A stretch of DNA of 64,000 nt from Alphaproteobacteria bacterium (GTDB lineage: Bacteria; Pseudomonadota; Alphaproteobacteria; SP197). The notes beneath the pieces were generated by a model. It was not told the origin of the DNA, did not search any database, and saw nothing but the letters and a program-made list of their open reading frames with translations. Below are positions 22,516-52,993 of this stretch, in pieces. The stretch is from NCBI GenBank assembly GCA_965200215.1, contig OZ241369.1, positions 1,754 to 65,753 on the forward strand. Direction: 5' to 3'. Made by a program: the position numbers and the translations under genes. Positions within the stretch are counted from its first letter, which is position 1. Every line of letters starts with the position of its first letter.

Positions 22516-22518
22516 CCC

Positions 22519-23568: not shown

Positions 23569-23815
23569 ACGGCAGGGACGATACCAGGCAGGCTAGACGA
23601 AGACGCCGCTAGGCGCAAGGTGCGCCACCGCCCCCGGCGGGCCGCAAGGCCCGCCCACGCACCACACGCCCGCCGTCAGGCACCACCACCATTCCCCGCT
23701 CCCACTGGCTACTGGCTACTAACCACTAACCACCCCCACCACCCCCCAGCCTCCCCACCAGCGCGGCAAGCCAGGGGGTGAGTTCCGGCGCGATATGGCC
23801 GTCGTCGCGCCGGGG
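23569..23815 (+). repeat. Dispersed repeat copy plus a ~70-bp duplicate of the 3' end of the HAD nucleotidase gene (23740-23815).
   Basis: GGCGGGCCGCAAGGCCCGCCCACGCACC core plus CCACTGGCTACTGGCTACTAACCACTAACCAC. Then CCCCAGCCTCCCCACCAGCGCGGCAAGCCAGGGGGTGAGTTCCGGCGCGATATGGCCGTCGTCGCGCCGGG, which matches 25023-25105 apart from a 10-12 bp indel. Confidence 0.75.
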
Positions 23816-23833
23816 CAAGCACCGTGACTCCAA

Positions 23834-31680: not shown

Positions 31681-33378
31681 ATGAGCGGGCGCCGCCGCGG
31701 CAGCCGCCGCCCCCGACAGCCTTCGCCCCCGCCGGAGGGCGCCGCCCGGCCCTTCCTGCCGCCCGGCTTCCCGTCATCCGTGGGCGAGGCCTTCTGGTTC
31801 GCCCCCGCGCTGACCGCCGCCTACGCCCTGGTGCTGGCCTTCGCCATGTCCCATCACGAAATGTGGCGCGACGAACTCCAGCACTGGATGCTCGTGCGCG
31901 ACAGCGCGGGACCGTGGGAGCTGTTCCGCAACGCGAAATACGAAACCATCCCCAAGCTGTGGCATCTGTTGCTGCTGCCGGTCGCATGGCTGACGCCGTC
32001 CCCGCTGGGGATGCAGATCCTCCACGGGGCCCTCGCCTCGGCGGTCGTCTTCGTCGTGGCGCGCTATGCGCCCTTCGACCCGCTCCAGAAGCTCCTGTTC
32101 GCCTTCGGTTATTTTCCCCTCTTCGAATACGGAGTGATGTCGCGCAACTATGCGCTCGGCCTGCTGTTCGTCGTCATGGCCTGCGCGCTTTGGCGCTCCC
32201 GCCATCGAAGGCCGCTGCGGCTGGCCCTGGTGCTGGCCCTGATGAGCAACACCGGCGCTCACGCCTGCATCGTCGCTATCGCCCTGCTGCTCGCCCTGCT
32301 GCTCGATGGCTGGCTCGCCCGCCGCGCCCTGGCCCGGGACGGCGCGGTGGATCCGCGCAGGCTCTGCTGCGGCCTCGCCATCGTCGCCGCCGGCATCGCG
32401 CTCTCGGTGCTTCAGATGATTCCGCCGCCCGACGTAACCCTGTCCACGCCGACCGCCACCTGGAAGCATTCGTGGTATCTGGAATGGAATCCTGCATGGC
32501 TGGCGATATGCCTGAAAACCATTCCTTTCGCGCTCTTCTTTCCCGCCGATCCGGAATTCGTGCCGGTGGTGGGCTTGATTACCGGGGTGCATGGGGCCGT
32601 CTACGGGGTAGCGGTGGCGCTGGCGTTTCCGGCCGTCGCCGCCGCCTTCTGCTGGCGCCGGCCCGTCGCGCTTTTCCTGTTTCTCTGCCTCGTGGCGGGA
32701 TTTCTGACCTTCTTCTACGCCGTCCATCTCGGCTCCTTCCGGCACTGGGGTTTTCTTCTGATCTCCCTTCTGATCGTGGCCTGGGTTTCCGCTCAAGGCG
32801 GAAGCGGCCCGACCGGCCCTGCCGCCGGCCCCGGCCCTGAAAGCCGCCGCGCGCTCCACGCAAGGCGCATCGGCCGCCTCCTGCTGACGGGCCTCCTGGC
32901 GATGCACGCCTTCGGCGGCATAAGGGCGGTGGCCATGGAGGTCGAGCGCCCCTTTTCCCAGGCGGCGGCCGCCGCCGCATACATCCGGGCCAACGGCCTG
33001 GAGCCCCTGCCGATGATCGGTTTCCCGGACTGGCCCGCCAGCGCCGTGCTCGGGCATCTGTCGCCGGAGAAACGCATCCACTATGTGCAGGGAAACCGGG
33101 AGGGTTCCTTCGTCCGCTGGGACGGAGCGCGCATCGGCACCGGGCCGCGGGGCGGCATCGAGGACCGGACCCTGTTCTTCCAGACCCAGGCCCTGGCCGC
33201 CCGCAACCACGGCAGGGTCCTGATGCTCCTGAACGTCCCGCTGGAGATTCCGCCCGAAGAACGGCGTCTCGAACCGCTCGCGTCCTTCACGGGGGCCATC
33301 GCTACCGATGAGGACTTCTATCTCTATCTCTACCGGCCGCCGCCCGGCGACGCTCGATCCGGCTCCCATGTCGAGTGA
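31681..33378 (+). CDS. Polytopic integral membrane protein (565 aa), probably a GT-C-type glycosyltransferase; first gene of the glycosylation island.
   Basis: More than 10 predicted TM helices, a C-terminal soluble region, and a position immediately upstream of the GT2 gene. Family assignment is uncertain. Confidence 0.6.
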   Translation: MSGRRRGSRRPRQPSPPPEGAARPFLPPGFPSSVGEAFWFAPALTAAYALVLAFAMSHHEMWRDELQHWMLVRDSAGPWELFRNAKYETIPKLWHLLLLPVAWLTPSPLGMQILHGALASAVVFVVARYAPFDPLQKLLFAFGYFPLFEYGVMSRNYALGLLFVVMACALWRSRHRRPLRLALVLALMSNTGAHACIVAIALLLALLLDGWLARRALARDGAVDPRRLCCGLAIVAAGIALSVLQMIPPPDVTLSTPTATWKHSWYLEWNPAWLAICLKTIPFALFFPADPEFVPVVGLITGVHGAVYGVAVALAFPAVAAAFCWRRPVALFLFLCLVAGFLTFFYAVHLGSFRHWGFLLISLLIVAWVSAQGGSGPTGPAAGPGPESRRALHARRIGRLLLTGLLAMHAFGGIRAVAMEVERPFSQAAAAAAYIRANGLEPLPMIGFPDWPASAVLGHLSPEKRIHYVQGNREGSFVRWDGARIGTGPRGGIEDRTLFFQTQALAARNHGRVLMLLNVPLEIPPEERRLEPLASFTGAIATDEDFYLYLYRPPPGDARSGSHVE

Positions 33379-33393
33379 CGCCACCCCCGGGCG

Positions 33394-34119
33394 GTGGCGG
33401 CCATGCCGGCGGAGGCTCCCTTGATCCCGGACGCCCTCACCATCGCGGTGCTCTGCCGCAACGAGGCGGGGACCATCCGCGCGGTCCTCGAGGACGCGCG
33501 CCGCGCCGTCCCCGGTGCGAGGCTTCTGGTCATCGACAACGCTTCCACCGACGGTTCGGGCGACCGCGCCCGGGAGGCGGGCGCCAGGGTCGTCTTCGTG
33601 CCCGAACCCGGTTTCGGCCGTGCCTGGCGCGCTGTGCTCGCTTCGGTCGAGACGCCGTGCTGCGTCGTCACCGATGGCGACGGCGAATGGCCCCTCGAAC
33701 CGGTCCTTCCCCGGCTCATCGGCGAGTTCGAGCGTTCGGGCGCCGACTTCATGCTGGGCTGGCGCACGTCGAGCGTCCGCTCCTGGTACAATGCTAGGCT
33801 CGGTCTGCCTGCGCTCAACGGGCTTGCCCGATGCGTGCGGGGCGTCCCGCTCCGGGATCTGCACACCGGGGTGCGCCTGTTTCGCACCGCGTCGCTGCGC
33901 GGCCTGCCGATCCGCTGCCGCGGCATGGGCGCGCAGACCGAGCTCGTCCTCCGCATCCACAAGGCGGGCCTGCGCTTCGCCGAGGGTCCGGTCGCCATGG
34001 CCCCGGCCATCCCGGGCCGCCGCCCCCATCTTCGCCCGCTTCGCGACGGCCTAGCCTGCGCCGCCCTGACCCTGGGCGGCCTCGAGCTCCTGGACCTCCT
34101 GGCCACCCGCCGCCGCTAA
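33394..34119 (+). CDS. Family 2 glycosyltransferase, polyprenyl-phosphate mannose/glucose synthase-like (DPM1-like).
   Basis: LTIAVLCRNEAGTIRAVLED...LLVIDNASTDGSGD...TDGDGEW are GT2 motifs (DxD/DGD). Confidence 0.78.
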   Translation: MAAMPAEAPLIPDALTIAVLCRNEAGTIRAVLEDARRAVPGARLLVIDNASTDGSGDRAREAGARVVFVPEPGFGRAWRAVLASVETPCCVVTDGDGEWPLEPVLPRLIGEFERSGADFMLGWRTSSVRSWYNARLGLPALNGLARCVRGVPLRDLHTGVRLFRTASLRGLPIRCRGMGAQTELVLRIHKAGLRFAEGPVAMAPAIPGRRPHLRPLRDGLACAALTLGGLELLDLLATRRR

Positions 34120-34255
34120 CCCCCACCGCCAGCCACACGCCCCCGGAGCGCCGCCGCCAGGCACCGCCCCACCGCCAGGCACCACCGCTTCCACCCGCTC
34201 TCACTAACCACTAGCCACCGACCACTGGCCACCGGCCACTAGCCCCCACCCCCCA
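34120..34255 (+). repeat. Dispersed intergenic repeat copy (tail-dominant), + orientation.
   Basis: CCACCGCCAGGCACCACCGCTTCCACCCGCTCTCACTAACCACTAGCCACCGACCACTGGCCACCGGCCACTAGCC. Confidence 0.75.
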
Positions 34256-35989
34256 TCACCCCGCCTTGACAAAGCGAATGTTAAAACCAGCCGGCGGCGC
34301 CGGCGCGTCGGGAAAGACGCGGCGCAGGAACTCCTCGCTGTACGTGTTCGGTATGAAGGGCCTGTACTCCTCCCAGCGGCGGACCGGCGCGTCGTTCTCC
34401 TCGCGGCGCAGGATGCGGAGATTGCCGAACGCCTTCTCCACCGCATAGCCGGGAACGACCAGCTCCGGGAGTTCGGTCACGATGTGGCTGGCCGAGACCC
34501 GGAGCGTTTCCAGCTGGTGCAGGTCGTTGGCGACCCCGGTCTGCGAATCGTAGAACGGGATCTTGCGGTGCAGATGGTAGTAGCCGGGGGTGGCGAGATA
34601 GGCGCGGTCGATCTGCCACACCGCTTCGACCCCCGGAGCGGTGGCGAGATAGCGATATGCCGCGAACGTGGCGTCCTGGTCGCGGAGAAAGCGGATGGGC
34701 AGCGGGTTGCCCGCGCAGCACGCTTCGTCCTGTTCCGGCAGCGCGTTCAGAATCCCGACCAGCGACACCGCCGCGAACAGGGCACCGGCCAGCCCATAGG
34801 CCAGCGCCGGCTTGCCGGCTCGCTCGGCGAGCCGCGCCACCAGGTCGGCGCCGGCCAGCAGCCAGAGGGGGACCACCGCGAAGACGAAGCGATATTCCTT
34901 GTGCGTCTGGGTGGAATGGATGAGTAGGATCAGGGCGATGGAGAGGAGCAGGAACCCGTAGCGGCGCGGTGCGGAGGCCGCCGCCGCCGCGCACAACGCG
35001 CTCAGGCCCCCGCCGGTGAACAGCAGCCACACCAGGTACTGATACGCCGGCTTCGTTTCATAGGCGGTCCGTTCCAGCCCCAGGTTGAAACGGAGGTTGT
35101 TGACATAGGACTGGAACAGCCCGGCGTCCCACGTCACCGCGTCGAACGCGCCGACCGCCAGCAGCACCGCCGCCGCGGCGAACGCCGCCTGCACCCTCGC
35201 GGCCTTGCCGGCCCGCAGGAACCACAGGCCCAGCAGCGCCAGCGCCAGGGGCGCATACTGGATCCGCACCGCCGCCGCCAGCACCGCCAGCAAGGCCACC
35301 GCCCAGGCGCCGCCCGCCCGGGCCGTTCCCGATCCGTCCGGCGAGGCGCGCACGCACAGCGCCAGCAGCGCCGTCAGCAGGGCGGTCGCGACCAGCTCGG
35401 TCAGCGGCTTGTGCGCGTAGCCGGCCAGCTCGTACCAGAACGCACCGGCCACCAGCGCCACCCGTGCCGACATTTCCCCCAGATGCCGCCGCGCGAAGAA
35501 ATACATCCCGGCCGGAATGGCCAGCGAGAGGGCGCAGAACGCCAGTTCGACCCCGCCGACGTACCAGGCCGGCTGCCCTAGCCCCACGGCGTCGAACAGG
35601 ACCAGAATCCCGGCGATCGCCACCGGCAGCAGCAGCGAGCGCGCGCCGTAGACCTGCTCCCAATACATGACGCCGTTGCCGAAGGCGAGCAGGTGCCCGA
35701 CCTCCAGATACTGCATGTACTCGTCGAAATGCAGCCGGGAATCGCCGTAGAGCGCGATACCCGCCCGCACCGCGAAGGCCAGCGCCAGCACCGGCCAGAA
35801 CCACCTCCACACCGGCTCGTCACCCGCCCGCAGATGCAACAACCCATCCACCGCCCCACCCAGGCGGGCAAGCGCGCGTCCGGGCAATCCCCGGCCCGAC
35901 GCCGCCTCGCGCCCCTCCGCCACCCCGCGCGTCTGCGAGGGCAGGGGCCGCGCCCCCCGCCGCCCAGCCTTTCTCTCCCGCCTAGCCAT
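34256..35989 (-). CDS. GT22-like (PIG-B/ALG9-type) integral-membrane mannosyltransferase, paralog 1 of 4.
   Basis: 577 aa, polytopic. HFDEYMQYLEVGH is a variant of the GT22 HPDExFQxLE motif. C-terminal region about 50% identical to paralogs 2-4. Confidence 0.72.
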   Translation of the reverse strand: MARRERKAGRRGARPLPSQTRGVAEGREAASGRGLPGRALARLGGAVDGLLHLRAGDEPVWRWFWPVLALAFAVRAGIALYGDSRLHFDEYMQYLEVGHLLAFGNGVMYWEQVYGARSLLLPVAIAGILVLFDAVGLGQPAWYVGGVELAFCALSLAIPAGMYFFARRHLGEMSARVALVAGAFWYELAGYAHKPLTELVATALLTALLALCVRASPDGSGTARAGGAWAVALLAVLAAAVRIQYAPLALALLGLWFLRAGKAARVQAAFAAAAVLLAVGAFDAVTWDAGLFQSYVNNLRFNLGLERTAYETKPAYQYLVWLLFTGGGLSALCAAAAASAPRRYGFLLLSIALILLIHSTQTHKEYRFVFAVVPLWLLAGADLVARLAERAGKPALAYGLAGALFAAVSLVGILNALPEQDEACCAGNPLPIRFLRDQDATFAAYRYLATAPGVEAVWQIDRAYLATPGYYHLHRKIPFYDSQTGVANDLHQLETLRVSASHIVTELPELVVPGYAVEKAFGNLRILRREENDAPVRRWEEYRPFIPNTYSEEFLRRVFPDAPAPPAGFNIRFVKAG

Positions 35990-36174
35990 AAAAGCGCCTA
36001 ACCCCCACCCTCACGCACCGTCATCAGCCACCCGGCGCCCCCCTGGCACCGACCGAGCGTCACGCCCCCTGGGAGCGCCGGCGTCCCGCCGGCAACGGGC
36101 CGAAGGCCCGCCAGGCACCACCCCCACCCCCCGCTCTCACTAACCACTAGCCACTGGCCACTATCCACGAACCA
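35990..36174 (+). repeat. Dispersed intergenic repeat copy, + orientation.
   Basis: CCCTGGGAGCGCCGGCGTCCCGCCGGCAACGGGCCGAAGGCCCGCCAGGCACC plus CCGCTCTCACTAACCACTAGCCACTGGCCACTATCC. Confidence 0.8.
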
Positions 36175-37881
36175 CTATTCCCCAACCAACCCCGCCCCCA
36201 CAAAGCGAATGCCGAAATTCGCCGGCGGCGGCGGCGCCTGCGCGTACAGCCGGGGCAGGTATCCCTCGCCGAACAGGTTGGTAACGGTCGGGTTGAAGCC
36301 CCGCCATCCGCGCACCGGCGCCTCGTTCTCCTCGCGGCCCAGGATGCGGACGCGGCCGAACTCCCACTCCACGGCGTAGCCGGCAACGGCGAGGTCCGGG
36401 CGCACGGTCACCAGATGGCTGACCGACCCCCGCAGCGTTTCCAGGTCGGCATGAAGCTCGTTGGCGAGGCCGGCCTGGCGATCGTAGAACGGCACCTTGC
36501 GGTGCAGGTAATAGTAGCCGGGCGTCTCCAGATAGTCGTTGTCGAGATCCCACACCGCCTTCACCCCGGGCGCGGCGGCCAGCCAGCGATAGGCGGCAAA
36601 CTCCGCATCCTGGCCGTGCAGGAATCTCACGGGGTGTCTCACGCCCACGCTGAACCTCTCCGTGAGCGCCTCGTCCCAGCGCGGCAACTGGTTCAGAATG
36701 CCGGCCACCGACGCCGCCGCGAACAGGACGCCCGCCAGCCCGTAGATCGGCGCTCGTTTGCCCGTGCGCTCGGCAAGACGGGCGACGAGGCCGGCCCCGA
36801 CCAGCAGCCACAGCGGAGCGAGGACGAACAGGTAGCGGTATTCCTTGTGCTCCTCGATGGAATGGGGCACCAGGATCAGGGCGATGAGGACGAGCAGAAA
36901 CCCGTAGCGGCGCAGGTCGAGCAGCGCCGCCGCCGCGCACAGCGCGCTCAGCCCGCCCCCGAGGAACAGGAGCCACACCAGATACTGGCCCCTCGGCCAG
37001 ACGTGCTCGACCCTGTGCCGGTCGATCGCGAGGTTGAATTCCAGATAGGTGCGGTAGGAGTGGAACAGCCCGCCGTCCCACGTCACGGCGTCGAACAGTC
37101 CGACCGCGAAGACGAACACGCTCGCCGCCGCCATGGCGTGCAGCCTGGCGGCCGTGCCGGCGCGCAGGAACCACAGGCCCAGCAGCGCCAGCGCCACCGG
37201 CGCATACTGGATCCGCACCGCCACCGTCAGCACCGCCAGGAAGGCGACCGTCCAGGCCGCCGCCGCCCCGTCCTTGCGCGGCGGGCGGACGCACAGCGCC
37301 AGCAGCGCCATCGCCAGGGCGGCGCCGACGAACTCGGTCATCGGCTTGTGGGCGAAACCGGCCAGCTCGTACCAGAACGCCCCCGCCACCAGCGCCACCC
37401 GCGCCGCCGCCTCGTCGAAATGCCGCCGCGCGAAGAAATACATCCCCGCCGGCACCGCCAGCGAGAGGGCGCAGAACGCCAGCTTGACCCCGCCGACATA
37501 CCAGGCCGGCTGCCCCAGCCCCACGGCGTCGAACAGGACCAGGATGCCGCCGATCAGGCCGGGGACGAGCCACGAGCGGGCGCCGTAGAAGAACTCCCAA
37601 TAGACGACGCCGTTGCCGAAGGCCAGCCGGTGCCCCTGCTCCAGATACTGCATGATCTCGTCGGGGTGTAGGACGAAATCGCCGTGGAGCGCGATAGCCG
37701 CCCGCGCCGCGAAGGCCAGCGCCAGCACCGGCCACAACCATCGCCACACCGGCCCGTCGCCCGCCCGCAAATGCAACAACCCATCCACCACCCCGCGCAG
37801 CCGCCCCAACCCACGCGGCCGCGAGGGCGCGGCGCGCTGCCTCCGCCGCGCCTTCCTCGCCTTTCTCTCCCTCTCAGCCAT
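36175..37881 (-). CDS. GT22-like mannosyltransferase, paralog 2 of 4.
   Basis: MAERERKARKARRRQRAAPS..., the HPDEIMQYLEQGH motif, 568 aa. N-terminal half nearly identical to paralog 4; C-terminal half nearly identical to paralog 3. Confidence 0.75.
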   Translation of the reverse strand: MAERERKARKARRRQRAAPSRPRGLGRLRGVVDGLLHLRAGDGPVWRWLWPVLALAFAARAAIALHGDFVLHPDEIMQYLEQGHRLAFGNGVVYWEFFYGARSWLVPGLIGGILVLFDAVGLGQPAWYVGGVKLAFCALSLAVPAGMYFFARRHFDEAAARVALVAGAFWYELAGFAHKPMTEFVGAALAMALLALCVRPPRKDGAAAAWTVAFLAVLTVAVRIQYAPVALALLGLWFLRAGTAARLHAMAAASVFVFAVGLFDAVTWDGGLFHSYRTYLEFNLAIDRHRVEHVWPRGQYLVWLLFLGGGLSALCAAAALLDLRRYGFLLVLIALILVPHSIEEHKEYRYLFVLAPLWLLVGAGLVARLAERTGKRAPIYGLAGVLFAAASVAGILNQLPRWDEALTERFSVGVRHPVRFLHGQDAEFAAYRWLAAAPGVKAVWDLDNDYLETPGYYYLHRKVPFYDRQAGLANELHADLETLRGSVSHLVTVRPDLAVAGYAVEWEFGRVRILGREENEAPVRGWRGFNPTVTNLFGEGYLPRLYAQAPPPPANFGIRFVGAGLVGE

Positions 37882-38056
37882 GCCCGCCCCCCGCCGTCAG
37901 GCACCACACCCCACCACCCGCGCCCCCCTGGGAGCGCCGGCGTCCCGCCGGCAAACGGGCCGAAGGCCCGTCAACGCACCACACGCTCACCGCCAGGCAC
38001 CACCCCCACCACCCGCTCCCACCGGCCACCGACCACTGGCTACTGGCCACTAACCA
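37882..38056 (+). repeat. Dispersed intergenic repeat copy, + orientation.
   Basis: CCCTGGGAGCGCCGGCGTCCCGCCGGCAAACGGGCCGAAGGCCCGTCAACGCACC plus CCGCTCCCACCGGCCACCGACCACTGGCTACTGGCCACTAACCACTATCC. Confidence 0.8.
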
Positions 38057-39823
38057 CTATCCACCCCCCACCCCCGCCTCCACAAAGCGAATCCCAAAAT
38101 TCCCCGCCGGCACAGGCGCTTCCGGATACAGCCGGCGCATGATCCCCTCCCCATAGGTGTGGGTGATGGTCGGCGTAAAGTCCCGCCATCCGCGCACCGC
38201 CGCCCCGTCCCCCTCGCGGCCCAGGATGCGGACCCGGCCGAACTCCCACTCCACGGCGTAGCCGGCAACGGCCAGGTCCGGGCGCACGGTCACCAGATGG
38301 CTGACCGACCCCCGCAGCGTCTCCGGGTCGCTATGCAGGTGGTTGGCGGCGCCCGCCGCCCGGTCGTAGAACGGCACTTTGCGGTGCAGGTAATAGTAGC
38401 CGGGCGTGTCCAGATAGTCGTGATCGAGGTCCCATACCGCTTGCACCCCGGGCGTGTCGGCCAGCCAGCGATAGGCGGCGAACGCCGGGTCCTGGCCGTA
38501 GAGGAACCGCACGGGGTGCCTTATGTCCGCGCTGATCCCCTCCGTGAGCGCCTCGTCCCAGCGCGGCAACAGGTTCAGGGCGCCGGCCACCGACACCGCC
38601 GCGAACAGGGTGCCGGCGGTCCCGTACACCAGCGCGGCCCTGCCTCCGCCCCCGCGCGCATCGGGGGCAGGGGAGGGGCGTCGCCCGGCCAGCCACGCCA
38701 CCGCGCCGGCCCCGACCAGCAGCCACAGCGGCACCGCCGCGAACACGAAGCGGTATTCCTTGTGCTCCTCGATGGAATGGGGCACGAGGATCAGGGCGAT
38801 GAGGACGAGCAGGAACCCGTAGCGGCGCAGGTCGAGCAGCGCCGCCGCCGCGCACAGCGCGCTCAGCCCGCCCCCGAGGAACAGGAGCCACACCAGATAC
38901 TGGCCCCTCGGCCAGATCCGCACGACCGCATCGCGGTCGATCGCGAGATTGAATTCCAGATAGGTGCGATAGGAATGAAACAGCCCGCCGTCCCACGTCA
39001 CGGCGTCGAACACGCCCACCGCGAAGAAGAACGCGCTCGCCGCCGCCATGGCGTGTAGCCTGGCGGCCGTGCCGGCCCGCAGGAACCACAGGCCCAGCAG
39101 CGCCAGCGCCACCGGCGCATACTGGATCCGCACCGCCACCGTCAGCACCGCCAGGAAGGCGACCAGCCACGCCGCTGCCGCCCCGTCGCCGCCCGCCGCC
39201 GCCCCACCGCCGCGCGGCGCCCGCATGAACAGCGCCAGCAGCGCCATCGCCAGGGCGGCGCCGACGAACTCGGTCATCGGCTTGTGGGCGAAGCCGGTCA
39301 GCTCGTACCAGAACGCCCCCGCCACCAGCGCCACCCGCGCCGCCGCCTCGTCGAAATGCCGCCGCGCGAAGAAATACATCCCCGCCGGCACCGCCAGCGA
39401 AAGGGCGCAGAACGCCAGCTTGACCCCGCCGACATACCAAGCCGGCTGCCCCAGCCCCACGGCGTCGAACAGGACCAGGATGCCGCCGATCAGGCCGGGG
39501 ACGAGCCACGAGCGGGCACCGTAGAAGAACTCCCAATAGACGACGCCGTTGCCGAAGGCCAGCCGGTGCCCCTGCTCCAGATACTGCATGATCTCGTCGG
39601 GGTGCAGGACGAAATCGCCGTGGAGCGCGATAGCCGCCCGCGCCGCGAAGGCCAGCGCCAGCACCGGCCACAACCATCGCCACACCGGCTCGTCACCCGC
39701 CCCCAAATGCAACAACCCATCCACCACCCCACCCAGGCGGGCCGCCCAGCGCCCGCGCGGCTGCGAGGGCGCAGCGCGCTGCCTCCGCCGCGCCCTCCTC
39801 GCCTTTCTCTCCCTCTCAGCCAT
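38057..39823 (-). CDS. GT22-like mannosyltransferase, paralog 3 of 4.
   Basis: ATG at 39823 (MAERERKARRARRRQRAAPSQ...), HPDEIMQYLEQGH, 588 aa. Contains a short insertion (RAPRGGGAAAGGDGAAAAW) relative to paralogs 2 and 4. Confidence 0.75.
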   Translation of the reverse strand: MAERERKARRARRRQRAAPSQPRGRWAARLGGVVDGLLHLGAGDEPVWRWLWPVLALAFAARAAIALHGDFVLHPDEIMQYLEQGHRLAFGNGVVYWEFFYGARSWLVPGLIGGILVLFDAVGLGQPAWYVGGVKLAFCALSLAVPAGMYFFARRHFDEAAARVALVAGAFWYELTGFAHKPMTEFVGAALAMALLALFMRAPRGGGAAAGGDGAAAAWLVAFLAVLTVAVRIQYAPVALALLGLWFLRAGTAARLHAMAAASAFFFAVGVFDAVTWDGGLFHSYRTYLEFNLAIDRDAVVRIWPRGQYLVWLLFLGGGLSALCAAAALLDLRRYGFLLVLIALILVPHSIEEHKEYRFVFAAVPLWLLVGAGAVAWLAGRRPSPAPDARGGGGRAALVYGTAGTLFAAVSVAGALNLLPRWDEALTEGISADIRHPVRFLYGQDPAFAAYRWLADTPGVQAVWDLDHDYLDTPGYYYLHRKVPFYDRAAGAANHLHSDPETLRGSVSHLVTVRPDLAVAGYAVEWEFGRVRILGREGDGAAVRGWRDFTPTITHTYGEGIMRRLYPEAPVPAGNFGIRFVEAGVGGG

Positions 39824-40000
39824 ACCCGCACCCCGCCCCCAGCCAGCCGTCCAGCCCACCCACGCACCGTTCCCCGAGCGCCGGCGCCCCGCCGGCAAAC
39901 GGGCCGAAGGCCCGTCAACGCACCACACGCTCACCGCCAGGCACCACCCCCACCACCCGCTCCCACCGGCCACCGACCACTGGCTACTGGCCACTAACCA
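39824..40000 (+). repeat. Dispersed intergenic repeat copy, + orientation.
   Basis: Near-identical to the 37882-38056 copy. Confidence 0.8.
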
Positions 40001-41692
40001 CTAACCACCCCCCACCCCCGCCCCCACAAAGCGAATCCCAAAATTCCCCGCCGGCACAGGCGCTTCCGGATACAGCCGGCGCATCAGCCCCTCCCCATAG
40101 GTGTGGGTGATGGTCGGCGTAAAGTCCCGCCATCCGCGCACCGCCGCCCCGTCCCCCTCGCGGCCCAGGATGCGGACGCCGCCGAACTCCCACTCCACCG
40201 CCCAGCCGGCAACGGCAAGGTCCGGGTCCTCGGTCACCAGGTGGCTGACCGAACCCAAGAGCGCCTCCAGGTCGCTATGCAGGTGGTTGGCGAAGCCGGT
40301 CACCCGGTCGTAGAACGGCACCTTGCGGTGCAGGTAATAGTAGCCGGGAAGGTCGTGATAGGGGCGGTCGACCTGCCACACCGCCAGGACCCCGGGCGCG
40401 TCGGCGAGGTAGCGGTAGGCGGCGAACACCGGGTCCTGCTCGCGGACGAACCGGATGGGGGTGGAGGCGTTCGCGCCCAGCCCTTCATCCTCGCCCGGCA
40501 GGACGTTCAGGATGCCGCCCACAGAGATCGCCGCGAACAGAACGCCGGCCGCCCCGAACACCAGGGCCCGCCGCCCTCCGGCGCGGTCGGCCAGCCGCGC
40601 CACGACGCCGGCGCCGGCGAGCAGCCACAGCGGCACCACCGCGAAGACGAAGCGGTATTCCTTATGCGGCTCCACGGTGTGAAGCAGCAGGATCACGGCG
40701 ATCAGCGCGAGCACCAACCCGTAGCGGCGCAGGTCGAACAGCGCCATCGCCACGCACAGCGCGCTCAACCCCGCCCCGGTCCACAGCAGCCACGGCAGAT
40801 ACTGATGGGTTGGCCAGGCCGCCCTGTCGATCGCCAGATTGAATGCGAGATTGGCGCGATAGGAGTGGAACAGCCCGCCGTCCCACGTCACGGCGTCGAA
40901 CACGCCCACCGCGAAGAAGAACACCGCCGCGGCGATGGCGGCGTGCATCTTCGCGGCCTTGCCGGCGCGCAGGAACCACAGGCCCAGCAACGCCAGCGCC
41001 ACGGGCGCGTATTGTATTCGCACTGCCGCCGTCAGCACCGCCAGCAGGGCGACCGTCCAGGCCGCCGCCGCCCCGTCCTTGCGCGGCGGGCGGACGCACA
41101 GCGCCAGCAGCGCCATCGCCAGGGCAGCGCCGACGAACTCGGTCATCGGCTTGTGGGCGAAGCCGGCCAGCTCGTACCAGAACGCCCCGGCCACCAGCGC
41201 CACCCGCGCCGCCGCTTCGTCGAAATGCCGCCGCGCGAAGAAGTACATCCCCGCCGGAACCGCCAGCGAGAGGGCGCAGAACGCCAGCTTGACCCCGCCG
41301 ACATACCAGGCCGGCTGCCCCAGCCCCACGGCGTCGAACAGGACCAGGATGCCGCCGATCAGGCCGGGGACGAGCCACGAGCGGGCACCGTAGAAGAACT
41401 CCCAATAGACGACGCCGTTGCCGAAGGCCAGCCGGTGCCCCTGCTCCAGATACTGCATGATCTCGTCGGGGTGCAGGACGAAATCGCCGTGGAGCGCGAT
41501 AGCCGCCCGCGCCGCGAAGGCCAGCGCCAGCACCGGCCACAACCATCGCCACACCGGCTCGTCACCCGCCCCCAAATGCAACAACCCATCCACCACCCCA
41601 CCCAGGCGGGCCGCCCAGCGCCCGCGCGGCTGCGAGGGCGCAGCGCGCTGCCTCCGCCGCGCCTTCCTCGCCCTTCTCTCCCTCTCAGCCAT
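40001..41692 (-). CDS. GT22-like mannosyltransferase, paralog 4 of 4.
   Basis: ATG at 41692 (MAERERRARKARRRQRAAPSQ...), HPDEIMQYLEQGH, 563 aa. Has a distinct central and C-terminal segment (QYLPWLLWTGAGLSALCVAMALFDL...). Confidence 0.75.
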   Translation of the reverse strand: MAERERRARKARRRQRAAPSQPRGRWAARLGGVVDGLLHLGAGDEPVWRWLWPVLALAFAARAAIALHGDFVLHPDEIMQYLEQGHRLAFGNGVVYWEFFYGARSWLVPGLIGGILVLFDAVGLGQPAWYVGGVKLAFCALSLAVPAGMYFFARRHFDEAAARVALVAGAFWYELAGFAHKPMTEFVGAALAMALLALCVRPPRKDGAAAAWTVALLAVLTAAVRIQYAPVALALLGLWFLRAGKAAKMHAAIAAAVFFFAVGVFDAVTWDGGLFHSYRANLAFNLAIDRAAWPTHQYLPWLLWTGAGLSALCVAMALFDLRRYGLVLALIAVILLLHTVEPHKEYRFVFAVVPLWLLAGAGVVARLADRAGGRRALVFGAAGVLFAAISVGGILNVLPGEDEGLGANASTPIRFVREQDPVFAAYRYLADAPGVLAVWQVDRPYHDLPGYYYLHRKVPFYDRVTGFANHLHSDLEALLGSVSHLVTEDPDLAVAGWAVEWEFGGVRILGREGDGAAVRGWRDFTPTITHTYGEGLMRRLYPEAPVPAGNFGIRFVGAGVGGG

Positions 41693-42017
41693 GCCCGCAC
41701 CCCGCCCCCAGCCAGCCGTCCAGCCCACCCACACACCGTTTCCCCGAGCGCCACCGCCAGGCACCCCCGCCAGCGTCACGCCCCCCGGCAGCACCCAACG
41801 CCCACCGCCAGGCACCGACTGAGCGTCCGCCCCCTGGGAGCGCCGGCGTCCCGCCGGCAAACGGGCCGCAAGGCCCGTCAACGCACAAGCGCCCACCGCC
41901 AGGCACCACACCCACCCCCGCTCCCACCGACCACTGGCCACTGGCTACTGGCCACTAACCACTAACCACTAACCACTAACCACTAACCACTAACCACTAA
42001 CCACTAACCACCCCCCA
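41693..42017 (+). repeat. Dispersed repeat (two cores) ending in a minisatellite of about 8 TAACCAC units (41941-42012).
   Basis: CCCCTGGGAGCGCCGGCGTCCCGCCGGCAAACGGGCCGCAAGGCCCGTCAACGCACAAGCGCCC... then CCACTGGCCACTGGCTACTGGCCACTAACCACTAACCACTAACCACTAACCACTAACCACTAACCACTAACCACTAACCACC. Confidence 0.85.
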
Positions 42018-43583
42018 TCATTCCGGCGCAGACAGCCAGAGGATCGGCCTCGGATTGTCGACGTACTGCCGCATCACGTGCCGCTTCTCCGCCCTCTGCT
42101 GCTCGAAGTTGGCCACATGCCAGCCGATCTGCGAGCGCTGCCACCAGGGAGCGCTCTCGGAGGCGCCATGCGCCTCCTGTTGCTCCAGCCAGCCCAGGAT
42201 GTTGTAGGACCAGGCGCCGACGAACTGCACCGCGACCGACCACAGCAGCGCCGCCCCGAACAGCGCCGCCACCCGCCGCCCGGCCATGACCCGTTCCATC
42301 GCCGGCAGCATCGACAGCGCCAGCAACGGCGCCGTATCGACGATCGACCGGTAGCCCCAGGCCGCCCCACCCCACCAATCGTACCACCGGGCGGCCACCA
42401 CGATCATCGCCAGAGCGGCGACCTGGAGCGGCACCAGAGGGCGCCAGCGCGCCTGCCTCCAGGCCAGCGCCATGCCCGCGAATCCGAACAGCAGCACCGG
42501 CGAATAGAACGCCAGGCCCCGTTGCGGGCTGACCAGCAGCCCCGGCAGGCTCTCCCACAGCGGCCCCGACCAGATGTCCCCGGACCCCGTGGTCAGGAGC
42601 GCGATGGCTCTCGACGCGATCGTCTGCCCGAACTCGAAGGGACTGCCGAACCACCAGGCGTTGTATGCGAACAGAACGACGGCGAAGGGCGCCCCGCCGG
42701 CGAGATAGGCGGGCAGGCGGCGCCGGTCCGCCCACAGCAGCCAGAGGCCCACGCACAGCGCCGCCAGGACGCTCGGAGGCCGGCACAGCACCGCCATCCC
42801 CAGCGCCGCCCCGCAACAGGCCCCGGGGCGCCGCCGTTCGGGAGAGGCGAGCAGGAAGAAGGCGCCCAGCGTCAGGAAGAAGGAGTTGGCCGGATGCTGC
42901 CACAGCGCCTGGCTGCTCACCGGCCAGGCGCAGCTTCCCAGCCCGAAGGCCAGGGCCACCAGCAGGGCCGGCAGGGGGGCGGCGAAGCGCCGCGCGGCCA
43001 GGAAGATCAGCAGCGCCGTGGCTGCGGTCAGCAGGGAGGCGGTCAGGGCGCCGCCATGCCACCACCAGTGGCGGTCGGCCTCGATGTCGGTGAACAGGTC
43101 GAGGGCGGCATAGACCGGCAGCCCGGTCAGCGCCGCCCCGATGCCGAAGGTGTTGACGAACACGCCCGGCTGCCTGCTTTCGACCACCCAGTAGCGCCCG
43201 GTTGGCACCAGCCGTCCCTGCTGGTACAGGGCGGCGGCCTCCCGGTTCCATTCGCTGACCCGGTTCCAGCTGTCGAGGATGGCGCCCTGCGCTTCCTCGC
43301 CGGCCTCTTCCAGCCTCCACCGGAAGGCGTCCGGCGCGTCCGCCGGCGTGAGCGAGAAGGAGTGCCGCTTCAGCAGGTTGACGCTGAACAGCATGTTGGC
43401 TTCCTGGTCGCCGCCGTAGAGAAAGTCGCCATTGCCCACATAGGCCCCGAAACAGGCCAGGAACAAAAGCGCGGGCAGAAGCATCCGCCGGCGGGGCTTC
43501 TCCACCGCCAGGCGCTGCGGCTTCGGCGCCGCAGCCCCGGGCCCAACCCGCCCCCGCACCTTTTTCCGGGCACTCCTCACCAC
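42018..43583 (-). CDS. Polytopic membrane protein, putative GT-C glycosyltransferase (ArnT/PMT-like); paralog A.
   Basis: 521 aa, more than 10 TM helices, N-terminal LLLPALLFLACFGAYVGNGDFLYGGDQEANMLFSVNLLKRHSF. GTG start. Near-identical core to paralog B. Family assignment is tentative. Confidence 0.6.
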   Translation of the reverse strand: MVRSARKKVRGRVGPGAAAPKPQRLAVEKPRRRMLLPALLFLACFGAYVGNGDFLYGGDQEANMLFSVNLLKRHSFSLTPADAPDAFRWRLEEAGEEAQGAILDSWNRVSEWNREAAALYQQGRLVPTGRYWVVESRQPGVFVNTFGIGAALTGLPVYAALDLFTDIEADRHWWWHGGALTASLLTAATALLIFLAARRFAAPLPALLVALAFGLGSCAWPVSSQALWQHPANSFFLTLGAFFLLASPERRRPGACCGAALGMAVLCRPPSVLAALCVGLWLLWADRRRLPAYLAGGAPFAVVLFAYNAWWFGSPFEFGQTIASRAIALLTTGSGDIWSGPLWESLPGLLVSPQRGLAFYSPVLLFGFAGMALAWRQARWRPLVPLQVAALAMIVVAARWYDWWGGAAWGYRSIVDTAPLLALSMLPAMERVMAGRRVAALFGAALLWSVAVQFVGAWSYNILGWLEQQEAHGASESAPWWQRSQIGWHVANFEQQRAEKRHVMRQYVDNPRPILWLSAPE

Positions 43584-43804
43584 CGCCTCCCCATCCCTCG
43601 CCAGTGTTTAGGTTCGAAAATGGGCAGGCACCGCTCGCCACCACCCCCAGGCACTGCCCAGGCAGCCCGCCCCCGGCGGGCCATCCGGCCCGTCAACGCA
43701 CCACACGCCCACCGCCAGGCACCACCACCAGCCATCCACTCTCACCGACCACTGGCCACTGGCCACCGACCACTAGCCACCGACCACTAGCCACTAACCC
43801 CCCA
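43584..43804 (+). repeat. Dispersed repeat with head hairpin (GGTTCGAAAATGGGCAGGCACCGCTCGCC), core and tail; + orientation.
   Basis: Head, core GGCGGGCCATCCGGCCCGTCAACGCACC, tail CCACTCTCACCGACCACTGGCCACTGGCCACCGACCACTAGCCACCGACCACTAGCCACTAACC. Confidence 0.78.
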
Positions 43805-45331
43805 TCATTCCCCCACAGACAGCCAGAGGATCGGCCCCGATTTGCCGGCATAGTCCCGCATGATCGCCTGCTTCAGCGCCCTCTGCGGCCCGAAATGGGC
43901 CACATGCCAGACGATCTGCGGGCGCGTCCACTGCCACAGGCTGGCCTTGTCCGGATCGTCGTGCTCCTGCCACTGTTTCATCCAGCCCACCTGGCTGTAG
44001 GACCAGGCGCCGACGAACTGCACCGCGACCGACCACAGCAGCGCCACCCCGAACAGCGCCGCCACCCGCCGCCCGGCCATGACCCGCTCCATCGCCGGCA
44101 GCATCGACAGCGCCAGCAGCGGCGCCGTATCGACGATCGACCGGTAGCCCCAGGCCGCACCGCCCCACCAGTCATACCACCGGGCGGCCACCACGATCAT
44201 CGCCAGGGCGGCGACCTGGAGCGGCACCAGAGGGCGCCAGCGCGCCTGCCTCCAGGCCAGCGCCATGCCCGCGAATCCGAACAGCAGCACCGGCGAATAG
44301 AACGCCAGCCCCCGTTGCGGGCTGAACAGCAGCCCCGGCAGGCTCTCCCACAGCGGCCCCGACCAGATGTCCCCGGACCCCGTCAGCGCCAGCGCGATGG
44401 CCCGCGACGATATTGTCTGCCCGAACTCGAAGGGGCTGCCGAACCACCAGGCGTTGTATGCGAACAGAACGACGGCGAAGGGCAGACCGCCGGCGAGATA
44501 GGCGGGCAGGCGGCGCCGGTCCGACCACAGCAGCCAGAGGCCCACGCACAGCGCCGCCAGGGCGCTCGGAGGCCGGCACAACACCGCCATCCCCAGCGCC
44601 GCCCCGCAATAGGCCCCATGGCGCCGCCGTTCGGGAGAGGCGAGCAGGAAGAAGGCGCCCAGCGTCAGGAAGAAGGAGTTGGCCGGATGCTGCCACAGCG
44701 CCTGGCTGCTCACCGGCCAGGCGCAGCTTCCCAGCCCGAACGCCAGGGCCACCAGCAGGGCCGGCAAGGGGGCGACGAAGCGCCGCGCGGCCAGGAAGAT
44801 CAGCAGCGCTGTGGCTGCGGTCAACAGGGAGGCGGTCAGGGCGCCGCCATGCCACCACCACCAGCGGTCGGCCTCGATGTCGGTGAACAGGTCGAGGGCG
44901 GCATAGACCGGCAGCCCGGTCAGCGCCGCCCCGATGCCGAAGGTGTTGACGAACACACCCGGCTGCGCGGTCGTGGCCAGATAATGGGCATAGGCGGTCG
45001 GCACCAGCCGCCCCTGCTCCCAGAGCGCGGCGTCGAAGGCGACGGCCCGCCCTTCCTCCGCCAGCTTCCAGTGGAAGGAGGCCGGCGCGTCCGCCAGGGT
45101 GAGCGAGAAGGAGTGCCGCTTCAGCAGGTTGACGCTGAACAGCATGTTGCCTTCCTGGTCGCTGCCGTAGAGGAAGTCGCCATTGCCCACATAGGCCCCG
45201 AAACAGGCCAGGAACAAAAGCGCGGGCAGGAGCATCCGCCGGCGGGGCTTCTCCACCGCCCGGCGCTGCGGCCCGGGCGGTGCCTGCCCAGCCCGCCCCC
45301 GCACCCTTTTTCGGGCACTTCTCACCACCAC
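43805..45331 (-). CDS. Polytopic membrane protein, putative GT-C glycosyltransferase; paralog B (tandem duplicate of 42018..43583).
   Basis: About 85% identical to paralog A over the TM core, with divergent N-proximal loop and C-terminal tail. Probable GTG start near 45325-45331 (VVVRSARKRVRG). Confidence 0.6.
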   Translation of the reverse strand: MVVRSARKRVRGRAGQAPPGPQRRAVEKPRRRMLLPALLFLACFGAYVGNGDFLYGSDQEGNMLFSVNLLKRHSFSLTLADAPASFHWKLAEEGRAVAFDAALWEQGRLVPTAYAHYLATTAQPGVFVNTFGIGAALTGLPVYAALDLFTDIEADRWWWWHGGALTASLLTAATALLIFLAARRFVAPLPALLVALAFGLGSCAWPVSSQALWQHPANSFFLTLGAFFLLASPERRRHGAYCGAALGMAVLCRPPSALAALCVGLWLLWSDRRRLPAYLAGGLPFAVVLFAYNAWWFGSPFEFGQTISSRAIALALTGSGDIWSGPLWESLPGLLFSPQRGLAFYSPVLLFGFAGMALAWRQARWRPLVPLQVAALAMIVVAARWYDWWGGAAWGYRSIVDTAPLLALSMLPAMERVMAGRRVAALFGVALLWSVAVQFVGAWSYSQVGWMKQWQEHDDPDKASLWQWTRPQIVWHVAHFGPQRALKQAIMRDYAGKSGPILWLSVGE

Positions 45332-45750: not shown

Positions 45751-46107
45751 ATGCCGAAGATCAACCCCTTCATCACCCTGTTCTTCGCCATCGCAGCCAT
45801 GAACGTCGTCTTGTTCGGCTGGCAGCGTGCCGACATGACCGCCCTGGAAGCGCGCTTTGCCGCCCTGGAAACTCGCATCGAGGAACGCTTCAACCGCATC
45901 GAAGCCGGACAGGTGGAGCTGCGCGAGCGCATGGTCCGCATCGAAGCCGGACAGACGGAGTTGCGCCAGCGCACGGCCCGCATCGAGGCCGGTCAGGCGG
46001 AGTTGCGCGAGCGCATGGCGCGCATCGAAGGCACGGTCGCCGGCGCCCTGGCCCGCCCCGACCGCCTCGCCCAGGCGCCCACCGAAGAAGCCGAAGCCGC
46101 CAACTGA
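45751..46107 (+). CDS. Small N-terminally membrane-anchored coiled-coil protein with RIEAGQxELR repeats (paralog of 10894..11262).
   Basis: MPKINPFITLFFAIAAMNVVLFGWQRADMTALE...RIEAGQVELRERMVRIEAGQTELRQRTARIEAGQAELRERMARIEGTVAGALARPDRLAQAPTEEAEAAN. Also shares 40 bp of upstream sequence with the 10894 copy. Confidence 0.6.
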   Translation: MPKINPFITLFFAIAAMNVVLFGWQRADMTALEARFAALETRIEERFNRIEAGQVELRERMVRIEAGQTELRQRTARIEAGQAELRERMARIEGTVAGALARPDRLAQAPTEEAEAAN

Positions 46108-46399: not shown

Positions 46400-47251
46400 T
46401 AGGCTCAGGACCCATAAACGGTCTTGAGTATTGTTGTGAGAAGTGGTTCAAGCTCTTCCAGATATAGAGGAGGCTATCATGTCTGACCACCACTTCTGGT
46501 TATCGGATGCCCAGTTCGCCCGCATCCAGCCGCTGTTGCCCAACAAGGTGCGCGGTGTGCCCCGGGTCGATGACCGGCGCGTCATCTCGGGCATCATCCA
46601 CGTCATTCGCAACGGGCTGAGGTGGCGTGACGCGCCGCCTGAATACGGTCCTCACAAGACCCTCTACAACCGCTTCGTGCGCTGGAGCAGGGCTGGCGTA
46701 TTCGGACGCATCTTCGAGGCTCTGGCTGCCGACAGCCGGGCGTCGGGGACGGTGATGATCGACGCCACCTACCTGAAGGCTCACCGGACTGCGGCCAGCC
46801 TGCTCAAAAAGGGGCTTTTCCGCGATGTATCGGGCGTAGCCGAGGCGGCTTGAACTCGAAGCTGCACGCGGTTTGCGACGGCGATGGCAAGCCCTTGATC
46901 CTGCTGCTGACCGAGGGGCAGGCCAGCGACTACCGGGGTGCCGAGGCCATCTTGCCGGCAGTGCCGGACGCCGATGTCCTGATCGCCGACAAGGGCTATG
47001 ACAGCGACCGTTTCCGCCAAGCCCTGGCCGAACGGCGCATCGAGACATGCATCCCCGGACGGGCGAACCGCAAGAGGCCGGTAGAATATGACCCAAAGCT
47101 ATACCAGCGGCGAAACCTCATCGAACGGATGTTCGGAAGGCTCAAGGACTGGAGGCGCATCGCCACACGATACGACCGATGCGCGCACACCTTCTTTAGC
47201 GCTATCTGCATCGCCGCCACCGTCATCTTCTGGTTATGAGTCCTGAGCCTA
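46400..47251 (+). mobile_element. IS5-family (IS427-group) insertion sequence, about 850 bp. Terminal inverted repeats GGCTCAGGAC(C/T)CATAA. Transposase in two ORFs (orfA 46479..46853, orfB 46850..47239) joined by a probable -1 frameshift at CAAAAAG (46805-46811). Inserted at a CTAG site with a TA duplication.
   Basis: Left end ...CTAGGCTCAGGACCCATAAACGG. Right end CCGTTTATGAGTCCTGAGCCTAG (rc matches the left end). orfA MSDHHFWLSDAQFARIQPLLP... has the HTH. orfB ...GGLNSKLHAVCDGDGKPL...ADKGYDS has the DDE motifs. Lower GC than the flanks. Confidence 0.85.
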
Positions 47252-51956: not shown

Positions 51957-52993
51957 ATGGCGGCACCGGCGATGGCCGACTGGAACACGGAAGCATTCTG
52001 GAAAACCGCCACGGAGGCGGACGTCTCGCGCTGCCTGGCGGACGGCGCCGACCCGAAGGCGCGAGCCGAGGACGGGATGACACCCCTGCACCATGCGGCG
52101 GCGGGTAGCGCGGCTCCGGCTGTGGTGACGGCGTTGCTTGATGCCGGCGCCGGCCTGGAAGCGCGGGACGAAGGCCGACGGACACCTCTGTACCGGGCGG
52201 CGGCGTTCAGCAAGGCCCCGCTGGTGGTAGTGGCGCTGCTGGACGCCGGCGCCGATCTGGAAGCGCGGGACGAAGTCGGGGGGACACCCCTGCATGTGGC
52301 GGCAGCGCTCAGCAAGGTCCCGGCGGTGGTAGTGGCGCTGCTGGGCGCTGGCGCCGATCTGGAAGCGCGGAGCGGAGGCGGGCTGACACCCTTGCATGTG
52401 GCGGCGGCGCTCAGCAAGGTCCCGGCGGTGGTAGTGACGCTGCTGGGAGCTGGCGCCGATCTGGAAGCGCGGACCGAAGGTGGACAGACACCTCTGCACC
52501 GGGCGGCGGCGTTCAGCAAGGTCCCGGCGGTGGTAGTGGGGTTGCTGGACGCCGGCGCCGATCTGGAAGCGCGGGACGAGGACGGGGCGACGCCCTTGCA
52601 CTATGCAGCGGGGTGGAACAAGACCCCGGCGGTGGCGACGGCGTTGCTGGATGCCGGTGCCGACCCGGCGGCACGGACCGAAGGCGGGCGGACGCCCCTG
52701 CATATAGCGGCGACGTTCAGCAAGACCCCGGTGGTAGTGACGGCGTTGCTGGCCGCTGGCGCCGATCTGGAAGCGCGGGATGAATACGGATGGACGCCTC
52801 TGCATGTGGCGGCGGTGGGCAGCGAGGCCCCCCCTCGGCGGTGGTGACGGCGCTGCTGGCTGCCGGCGCTAACCCGGCGGCGAGAGACGCGGACGGCTGC
52901 ATCCCCTGGGATCTCATCGAGGACGACTCTCCGCTCAAGGGAAGCGACGTCTATCGGCAGTTGAAAGACGCCCGCTTCCAGCGGCGGCGGTGA
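51957..52993 (+). CDS. Ankyrin-repeat protein (8-9 ANK repeats) interrupted by a -1 frameshift in a C7 homopolymer at 52829-52835. A C8 tract would restore a 345-aa ORF.
   Basis: Repeats of the type G(x)TPLH(x)AAxxSKxPAVVVALLxAGADLEARD. Frame 1 stops at 52847 (..GSEAPPRRW*). Frame -1 (52790..52993) continues the ANK consensus (SAVVTALLAAGANPAARDADGCIPWD...). Confidence 0.75.

Follow-up and report, generated by a model that had tools for sequence, protein, structure and literature searches.

A tandem array of four GT22-family glycosyltransferase genes, with gene conversion among its copies, in an alphaproteobacterial genome

What does a bacterium build with four tandem genes of the glycosyltransferase (GT) family GT22? 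This family is known from eukaryotic N-glycan and glycosylphosphatidylinositol (GPI) assembly, and its enzymes use polyprenyl- or dolichyl-phosphate-mannose as the donor and form alpha-mannosidic bonds on lipid-linked glycans. The question is raised by a 64,000-nucleotide (nt) stretch of contig OZ241369.1 from an alphaproteobacterium (the window; all coordinates without a locus label are window positions). The window has a G+C content of ~71% and contains, in a chromosomal stretch, a glycosylation island at 31681-45331. We found that the island encodes one GT2 enzyme plus seven enzymes of the GT-C fold (A, c1 to c4, p1, and p2). They probably form a chromosomal gene set that uses a polyprenyl-phosphate-linked sugar to build a glycan on the periplasmic side of the inner membrane, with the GT22 copies adding residues in a fixed order. 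A sequence-only reading, made earlier from the letters and their open reading frames (ORFs), had announced nine consecutive genes here. The genes are present, but they number eight, as did those which that reading itself listed, and all have coding-type G+C at third codon positions (0.85-0.91). They are as follows:

31681-33378, plus strand: gene A, 565 amino acids (aa), polytopic protein.
33394-34119, plus strand: gene B, 241 aa, GT2.
34256-35989, minus strand: c1, 577 aa, GT22, motif HFDE, the most divergent copy, outside the conversion tracts.
36175-37881, minus strand: c2, 568 aa, GT22.
38057-39823, minus strand: c3, 588 aa, GT22, with insertions of 7 and ~11 aa.
40001-41692, minus strand: c4, 563 aa, GT22.
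42018-43583, minus strand: p1, 521 aa, PMT_2-like GT-C protein.
43805-45331, minus strand: p2, ~508 aa, paralog of p1; the exact start is uncertain within a few codons, and the reading frame stays open up to 45508.

The assignment of c1 to c4 to GT22, already proposed from the sequence, is firm. All four matched the Pfam model PF03901 (Glyco_transf_22), with E-values of 1e-28 (c1), 7e-24 (c2), 2e-23 (c3), and 2e-26 (c4) and with 83.8-101.1 bits at a cut-off of 23.8. The matches covered model positions ~4-357 of 414, and PF03901 was also present in 120 of 120 GT22 homologues among the matches listed. The motif reads HPDEIMQYLE in c2 to c4 and HFDEYMQYLE in c1, exactly as first described, and its region is conserved: H74, D76, E77, and H86 were invariant in 45 GT22 homologues. 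When a profile of these 45 homologues was compared with PDB sequences, it reached ALG12 (E 0.0016) and ALG9 (E 0.0037). In the profile alignment, HPDEIMQYLEQGH stands opposite DCAETFNYWEPTH, HKEYRF stands opposite HKE(E/L)RF, and the Asp of H(P/F)DE is aligned with position 82 of the ALG9 chain, which carries the substitution D82A. In ALG9, D82 is the catalytic base and lies in luminal loop 1, in its first helix; the catalytic acidic residue of GT22 enzymes is found at D82 in HsALG9 and at E35 in GgALG12 (PMC13503287).

The predicted structure points in the same direction. An AlphaFold2 (AF2) model of c4 had a predicted template modeling (TM) score (pTM) of 0.76. Its best PDB matches were ALG12 (9s6t; 4.9e-7, TM-scores 0.56/0.64) and ALG9 (9s6u/9s6s; TM-score 0.50), followed by lower-ranked fold matches to STT3, ArnT, and AftD. 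ALG9 and ALG12 are built from a conserved module of seven transmembrane helices, a variable module, and a C-terminal luminal domain (PMC13503287). By crude hydropathy, the GT22 copies have an Arg/Lys-rich N-terminus, about eleven hydrophobic segments up to ~aa 415, and then a C-terminal tail of 150-170 aa that lacks such segments, a predicted topology that fits the three-part plan. The description of the paralogs as "eukaryote-type" is apt as a family label but not as a statement of closeness, since their identity to ALG9 and ALG12 is only 15-18%. With a similarity this remote, a recent gene transfer from a eukaryotic host was rejected.

Copy number and copy identity are conserved beyond the window. 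A genome-collection scan and contig look-up yielded loci from other genomes, labeled L001 to L018. The four-copy array together with a p gene was present in five of these genomes (L018 and L001 to L004), thus in six including the window, always in the order p, c4, c3, c2, c1. L018, which was assembled separately from another sample, shows 94-98% protein identity and synteny on the fumC side; in L001 to L004, the identity is 70-89% and the arrays are located in different neighborhoods. The c1 orthologues of the five genomes are 77-98% identical to the window's c1, which has 68-69% protein and 72-74% DNA identity to the other copies of its own array. Within aa 240-360, in the middle of the protein, and aa 400-500, in the C-terminal domain, almost all copies have their closest match at the equivalent array position of the other genomes. 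In addition, the ratio of nonsynonymous to synonymous substitution rates (dN/dS) between the window and L018 was 0.15-0.34 for all six comparable GT-C genes, showing purifying selection on all of them. This indicates that the four copies are old, that each has its own putative acceptor-side part, and, because the segments group by array position under such low dN/dS values, that the array holds four fixed specificities. The diversifying selection on specificity suggested by the sequence-only reading was not borne out for the GT22 copies; values of ~1.1-1.2 were reached only in one loop and the tail of p1 and p2, on small counts.

Gene B is a candidate for the enzyme that supplies the lipid-linked sugar. 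It matched the GT2 model PF00535 (6.8e-15, 55.8 bits, cut-off 23.3) and has one C-terminal hydrophobic segment in a hydropathy scan. Its nearest NCBIfam models were AglJ (1.6e-22), DPhHxTase (dolichyl-phosphate hexose transferase; 1.8e-17), and PpgS (6e-14), and it failed the equivalog cut-off of each (80 of 325, 63 of 375, and 52 of 370 bits, respectively). Thus, B looks like a polyprenyl-phosphate hexose synthase of the DPM1/AglJ/PpgS type. The GT2 half of the earlier label, "PPM-synthase-like GT2," is upheld. The sugar, most likely mannose, is suggested by the GT22 family of the neighboring enzymes and is not readable from the sequence of B.

Gene A had been described as a 565-aa polytopic protein, to which a fold can now be added. 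It had no match in Pfam or NCBIfam, and PDB sequence searches with the single sequence and with a profile also gave no match. Its AF2 model (predicted local distance difference test [pLDDT] 83.8, pTM 0.87), compared with the PDB by Foldseek, matched ALG12 (5.5e-5), AftA (2.2e-4), and ArnT (8.5e-4) with probability 1.00; AftB, EmbA/B, DPY19, and ALG3 were further top matches. After its first transmembrane helix (TM1), A carries the motif HHEMWRDE, of which H59, E60, W62, R63, and E65 were invariant in 43 homologues. The hhalign comparison gave no signal with the p profile (0.2% probability) or the GT22 profile (1.2%). The model and fold search place A as a predicted GT-C-fold enzyme of a family that has no Pfam model. 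Its homologues include one in a MAG (metagenome-assembled genome) of Poribacteria.

For p1 and p2, which had also been read as GT-C paralogs, the individual matches were weak. Both reached 16 bits with PMT_2 (PF13231; cut-off 26.1), with E 0.012 for p1, which also matched the NCBIfam model LA3751_2_3 at 3e-11, below the cut-off. No match was obtained when p1 was used in single-sequence and profile searches of PDB sequences, and hhalign of the p profile with the GT22 profile gave 23% probability. At the family level, 21 of 34 members matched PF13231 at E <=0.01 (best 8e-7), and one p homologue is named "glycosyltransferase family 39 protein." These family-level matches support a classification of p1 and p2 as PMT_2-like GT-C proteins. 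Many p homologues (680-860 aa) have C-terminal TPR arrays; neither a TPR nor a MIR domain was found in p1 and p2. The two paralogs are 82% identical, and their differences are concentrated in a loop (aa 85-135) and in the tail (aa 460-521), in agreement with the sequence-only reading. The dN/dS values of ~1.1-1.2 in these two segments are based on 8-10 synonymous changes.

More distant relatives of the GT22 copies occur in many phyla. Relatives of c1 with 40-58% identity were found in MAGs of Thermodesulfobacteriota, Latescibacterota, Nitrospirales, Bryobacterales, and Arenicellales and in MAGs labeled Pseudomonadales, Pseudohongiellaceae, Spirochaetia, Candidatus Poriferihabitaceae, and Candidatus Spongiihabitans, in a scan that used exact c1 peptide words and is not an unbiased census. 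Among 1.84 billion cluster representatives, c4 had 1842 matches at E <=0.001 and 275 at <=1e-30. Since the four paralogs (68-85% protein identity in the window genome) are closer to each other than to out-group genes, the duplications arose within the window lineage. Such a distribution over MAGs of many phyla, several with names that mark them as sponge associates, suggests that the subfamily has spread horizontally and has a role at the interface with the host. Both Candidatus names appear in the literature on sponges and sponge microbial metagenomes, and the source bacterium of the window is probably a sponge symbiont. With relatives in many phyla, several of them sponge associated, the GT22 genes are a candidate symbiosis factor, and the bacterial set may also bear on the origin of the mannosyltransferases of the endoplasmic reticulum lumen.

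In the other phyla, the GT22 gene often stands beside a GT2-GtrA/DPMS fusion and TPR-bearing GT-C genes. The GtrA domain (PF04138) was confirmed in three of three scanned GT2 fusions beside GT22 (L006, L011, and L013), and by tblastn, L015 and L017 were found to encode full-length relatives of them, with a shorter match in L016. TPR-bearing GT-C genes, from one to five in tandem, lie beside GT22 in L001, L006, L010, L013, L015, L016, and L017. Arrays of two to five such genes are located at L010 2169-9424, L015 5648-9902 and 16753-21606, L006 11603-18048, and L013 1939-6079. In Pfam searches, two of the L006 proteins matched PMT_2 just below the threshold and one L001 protein matched TPR only. 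The arrays beside single GT22 genes are a separate paralog expansion with a TMTC-like architecture; no copy of this second, TPR-bearing GT-C family was found in the window by tblastn.

Taken together, these data are best explained by the following pathway. In the cytoplasm, B would load a hexose, most likely mannose, onto polyprenyl phosphate, and the lipid-linked sugar would be flipped across the membrane. Outside the cytoplasm, the seven GT-C-fold enzymes would then pass the sugar on to an acceptor. The GT22 paralogs would act like ALG9 and ALG12, with the Asp of H(P/F)DE in the first periplasmic loop as the predicted catalytic base. The variable membrane module and the C-terminal periplasmic domain would be distinct in each copy, and because of these separate parts each of the four copies would contribute a different residue or linkage to a membrane-anchored oligosaccharide, one after another in a fixed order. 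To our knowledge, every characterized GT22 enzyme acts on a lipid-anchored glycan, either a dolichyl-diphosphate (Dol-PP)-linked oligosaccharide or GPI. By this analogy, we favor a lipid-linked glycan or lipoglycan as the acceptor.

Several points weigh against this pathway or parts of it. With AglJ, dolichyl-phosphate hexose transferase, and PpgS, B stays so far under the respective cut-offs that its matches do not fix the sugar. Neither a flippase gene nor a GtrA domain was identified in the island, and B itself had no PF04138 match. A and B adjoin the array in the window, L001, and L003, but they are absent within 10 kb of it in L002, L004, and L018, and A homologues in other genomes stand alone, so the membership of A and B in the array's pathway is uncertain. 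The c4 model has pLDDT <50 at aa 70-76 and 92-103, which is the HPDE loop, and its C-terminal domain is partly of low confidence. The TPR fusions in relatives point to protein rather than lipid acceptors, and the sponge origin of most of the MAGs is taken from names and taxa, not from sample records. The literature searched contained no characterized bacterial GT22 enzyme.

The TPR fusions also bear on the main alternative, a protein O-glycosylation system, which is possible, if tentative. Here p1 and p2 would attach an initial hexose to Ser/Thr residues of proteins that are secreted or periplasmic, like PMT and TMTC enzymes, and the GT22 copies would extend it to a short oligomannose. The PMT_2 matches of the p family and the homologue named as family 39 agree with this, as do the TPR arrays on many p homologues and on the GT-C genes beside GT22 in seven loci (L001 and six from other phyla); in the TMTC architecture, TPRs bind protein substrates. 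However, p1 and p2 themselves are without TPR or MIR, the characterized GT22 enzymes all act on lipid-anchored glycans, and the array has no linked gene for a candidate substrate; the giant adhesin of the window is neither adjacent to it nor conserved beside the arrays of relatives.

A broader proposal concerns the wider group of MAGs and seems to us rather doubtful. Sponge bacteria of many phyla would share, by horizontal transfer, a GT22-centered module consisting of a GT2(-GtrA) enzyme, ALG9/ALG12-like transferases, and TPR-bearing GT-C proteins. This module would make a eukaryote-like oligomannose on surface proteins or lipids that serves as a signal for host recognition or evasion of phagocytosis, and the four-enzyme array would be a bacterial counterpart of the ordered branch building by ALG3, ALG9, and ALG12.

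A lipid-acceptor pathway for the island has precedents in ALG9/ALG12 and in the mycobacterial route of Ppm1 plus GT-C enzymes. With ALG9 and ALG12 (CAZy GT22; 9s6s/9s6u/9s6t; PMC13503287), the island copies share PF03901, the best fold matches, the position of the acidic base, and HKExRF, and several paralogs with different acceptor-side parts imply ordered additions in both. They differ in the low identity, with profile E-values of ~1e-3 against PDB sequences, in being bacterial and periplasmic, and in the tandem arrangement with gene conversion. Moreover, the carrier would be a bacterial polyprenol, and no oligosaccharyltransferase or Alg3-type partner was found for the island. The GPI mannosyltransferases PIG-B and PIG-Z, compared by description only, belong to the same Pfam family, and they use a lipid-anchored acceptor and dolichyl-phosphate-mannose as the donor; no other GPI-pathway genes are present here. 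The mycobacterial lipomannan/lipoarabinomannan pathway (Ppm1 plus PimE, MptA/B/C, Emb, and Aft) is similar in that polyprenyl-phosphate-mannose comes from a single GT2 and a lipid-anchored glycan is elongated on the outside of the membrane by many GT-C enzymes; the fold matches of A include AftA, AftB, and Emb. However, that pathway uses GT87, GT53, and GT85, whereas the island has GT22, PMT_2-like, and unnamed-family enzymes in a Gram-negative proteobacterium, in which no genes of the phosphatidylinositol mannoside type were seen.

The three-component systems of periplasmic glycosylation, GtrA/GtrB/Gtr and ArnC/ArnT, also pair a GT2 lipid-sugar synthase with a GT-C transferase. GT22 genes of other phyla stand beside a GT2-GtrA fusion, and the fold searches with A and with c4 both matched ArnT. 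In contrast, the window has no GtrA domain and seven GT-C genes instead of one, and no connection with an O-antigen or lipid A locus was observed. The PMT and TMTC protein O-mannosyltransferases (GT39 and GT105; PF13231-like) resemble the p family in its PMT_2 matches and in the C-terminal TPR arrays of p relatives, which are like those of TMTC1-4, but p1 and p2 are below the Pfam threshold and have neither TPR nor MIR. The enzyme families and the general logic are already known. Nothing relevant on bacterial or sponge-symbiont GT22 was found in the searchable literature, nor was the bacterial GT22 subfamily, an array of four copies in which only the catalytic module evolves in concert, or the cross-phylum GT2-GtrA and TPR-GT-C partners.

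The concerted evolution is seen at the DNA level. In a sliding-window comparison, c3 and c4 were 100% identical over 311 nt, and their last ~190 nt were 97-98% identical, which agrees with the shared last ~60 aa noted before. Two tracts were delimited:

39441-39751 (= 41310-41620 in c4), minus strand: conversion tract of 311 nt, spanning TM1, the HPDE loop, and the subsequent helices.
38080-38233 (equivalent 40024-40177), minus strand: 3'-terminal conversion tract of c3/c4, with identical runs of 90 and 61 nt.

The mosaic structure of c2 was also recovered. This copy is 97-100% identical to both c3 and c4 over nt 181-585, then matches c4 at nt 586-675 and c3 at nt 720-1080. The 19-aa insertion ascribed to c3 was not recovered as a single element; the alignment resolved it into the two insertions listed above. 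In aa 45-195, c2, c3, and c4 are 99-100% identical to each other within the window genome and likewise within L018. The synonymous rate dS was 0.05-0.08 in aa 40-195 and 0.2-0.6 elsewhere, and this low dS shows that the near-identity of the N-terminal module is due to conversion, not to constraint alone. The tails of c3 and c4 are 96% identical in the window and 86% in L018, whose c4 tail differs (88%); the c3-to-c4 tail conversion therefore post-dates the split from L018. In L002, a 100% identity of the c3 and c4 tails arose independently. Thus, gene conversion among the tandem copies is real and still active, as had been suspected. It mainly homogenizes the N-terminal catalytic module, and the acceptor-side parts remain distinct. 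With one shared catalytic module and four acceptor-side modules, the paralogs form a compact set in which acceptor reading by GT-C enzymes can be studied.

The same conversion events were the basis of the sequence-only view of the array as a generator of diversity, in which recombination between paralogs shuffles acceptor-recognition segments and yields a strain-variable surface glycan under diversifying selection. Conversion is indeed frequent and recent, with the tail event found in the window but not in L018 and the separate event in L002; IS5 fragments flank the array, and the p1/p2 loop and tail show the elevated dN/dS. We nevertheless judge this explanation unlikely. The variable module and C-terminal domain of the GT22 copies are position-conserved in the six genomes at dN/dS 0.15-0.34, the main tract homogenizes the catalytic N-terminal module instead of shuffling acceptor-side parts, and the p1/p2 values come from 8-10 synonymous changes. 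That the mosaic is an artefact of collapsed or chimeric repeats in a metagenome-assembled genome is highly improbable: identical tracts of up to 311 nt split by repeated intergenic elements are hard to assemble, but the separately assembled L018 has the same array with a homogenized N-terminus and copy-specific segments, all reading frames are intact, and the same four-copy order is found in four more distant genomes.

The intergenic gaps of the array contain a composite repeat:

41693-42017, minus strand: composite repeat copy, with (TTAGTGG)x8.6, GGTGCCTGGCGG, hairpin CGGGCCTTGCGGCCCG followed by TTTG, and hairpin GCCGGCGGGACGCCGGC.
35990-36174, 37882-38056, 39824-40000, and 43584-43804: similar repeat copies.
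5950, 9638, 11309, 24893, 37936, 41842, 46184, 51762, and 53176, plus strand: example sites of the repeat core (9 of 17).

The repeat core, GCCGGCGTCCCGCCGGCAAACGGGCCG(A/C)AAGGCCCG, forms two hairpins. It occurs in 17 copies over the window (5950-57176; 0 expected by chance), all on the plus strand whatever the gene direction. The segments upstream of c2 and c3 are near-identical, as reported for 37882 and 39824, but the repeat is not specific to the island, and its wide distribution over the window led us to reject it as a recombination device particular to the island. Of the loci compared, only L018 shares it. The repeat is a lineage-specific interspersed element rather than an island feature, and it may provide homology for unequal exchange. 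The heptamer runs in the array gaps read TTAGTGG/CCAGTGG on the gene strand. A perfect microsatellite, (CCACTAA)x8.6 (TTAGTGG on the gene strand), lies at 41952-42011, just after the p1 stop and ~260 nt upstream of the c4 start; the other gaps have shorter, imperfect runs. Heptamer slippage could alter spacing or expression.

The sequence-only reading had also named an adjacent giant adhesin as a possible acceptor. This protein (11990-22912, minus strand; 3640 aa) matched LapA and Calx-beta and contains internal repeats of ~345 nt. Its gene lies ~9 kb from the island, with argB, engB, yidC, rnpA, and a GST gene in between, and the proposed link between the adhesin and the island found no support. 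As a substrate it was set aside, since these housekeeping genes intervene and nothing similar lies within 10 kb of the array in L001 to L004 and L018.

Before the island, the gene order is signal recognition particle (SRP) RNA, dnaX, recR, rmuC, def, truA, dapD, the giant protein, argB, engB, yidC, rnpA, and the GST gene. Past the island follow a small coiled-coil ORF, an IS5-type fragment, fumC, ABC transporter genes, and an ankyrin-repeat protein. An Rfam scan of the island detected no RNA family; upstream of dnaX, the bacterial small SRP RNA (RF00169, 62 bits) was found at 141-236 (plus strand). The fragment between the island and fumC (46443-46853, plus strand) is of an IS4/IS5-family transposase (DUF4096, 3e-25), and L018 has DUF4096 and DDE genes at the same spot (L018 5549-6309). 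On the other side, just beyond c1, L018 carries a type ISP restriction-modification enzyme (L018 17876-21220; N6_Mtase plus Type_ISP_C, 1114 aa) where the window has B and A, and the c1 side of the array is therefore variable.

Two paralogous small ORFs, at 10894-11262 (plus strand, 122 aa) and 45751-46107 (plus strand, 118 aa), are built from a 42-nt/14-aa repeat unit, RIEAGQxELRERMA. One of the pair flanks the island, and L018 has a 65%-identical copy at the same place. A patch of lower G+C (~0.65) at 23275-24690 contains minus-strand ORFs of 165 aa (24193-24690), 169 aa (23834-24343), and 97 aa (23275-23568). It had no match in Rfam and looks like an inserted accessory cassette, possibly toxin-antitoxin-like. 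The ankyrin-repeat protein past the island (51957-52847, plus strand; 296 aa) matched Pfam Ank at 1.5e-43 and is visible in the DNA as a 102-nt tandem repeat at 52028-52869. It is eukaryote-like, and proteins of this kind are frequently reported from sponge symbionts.

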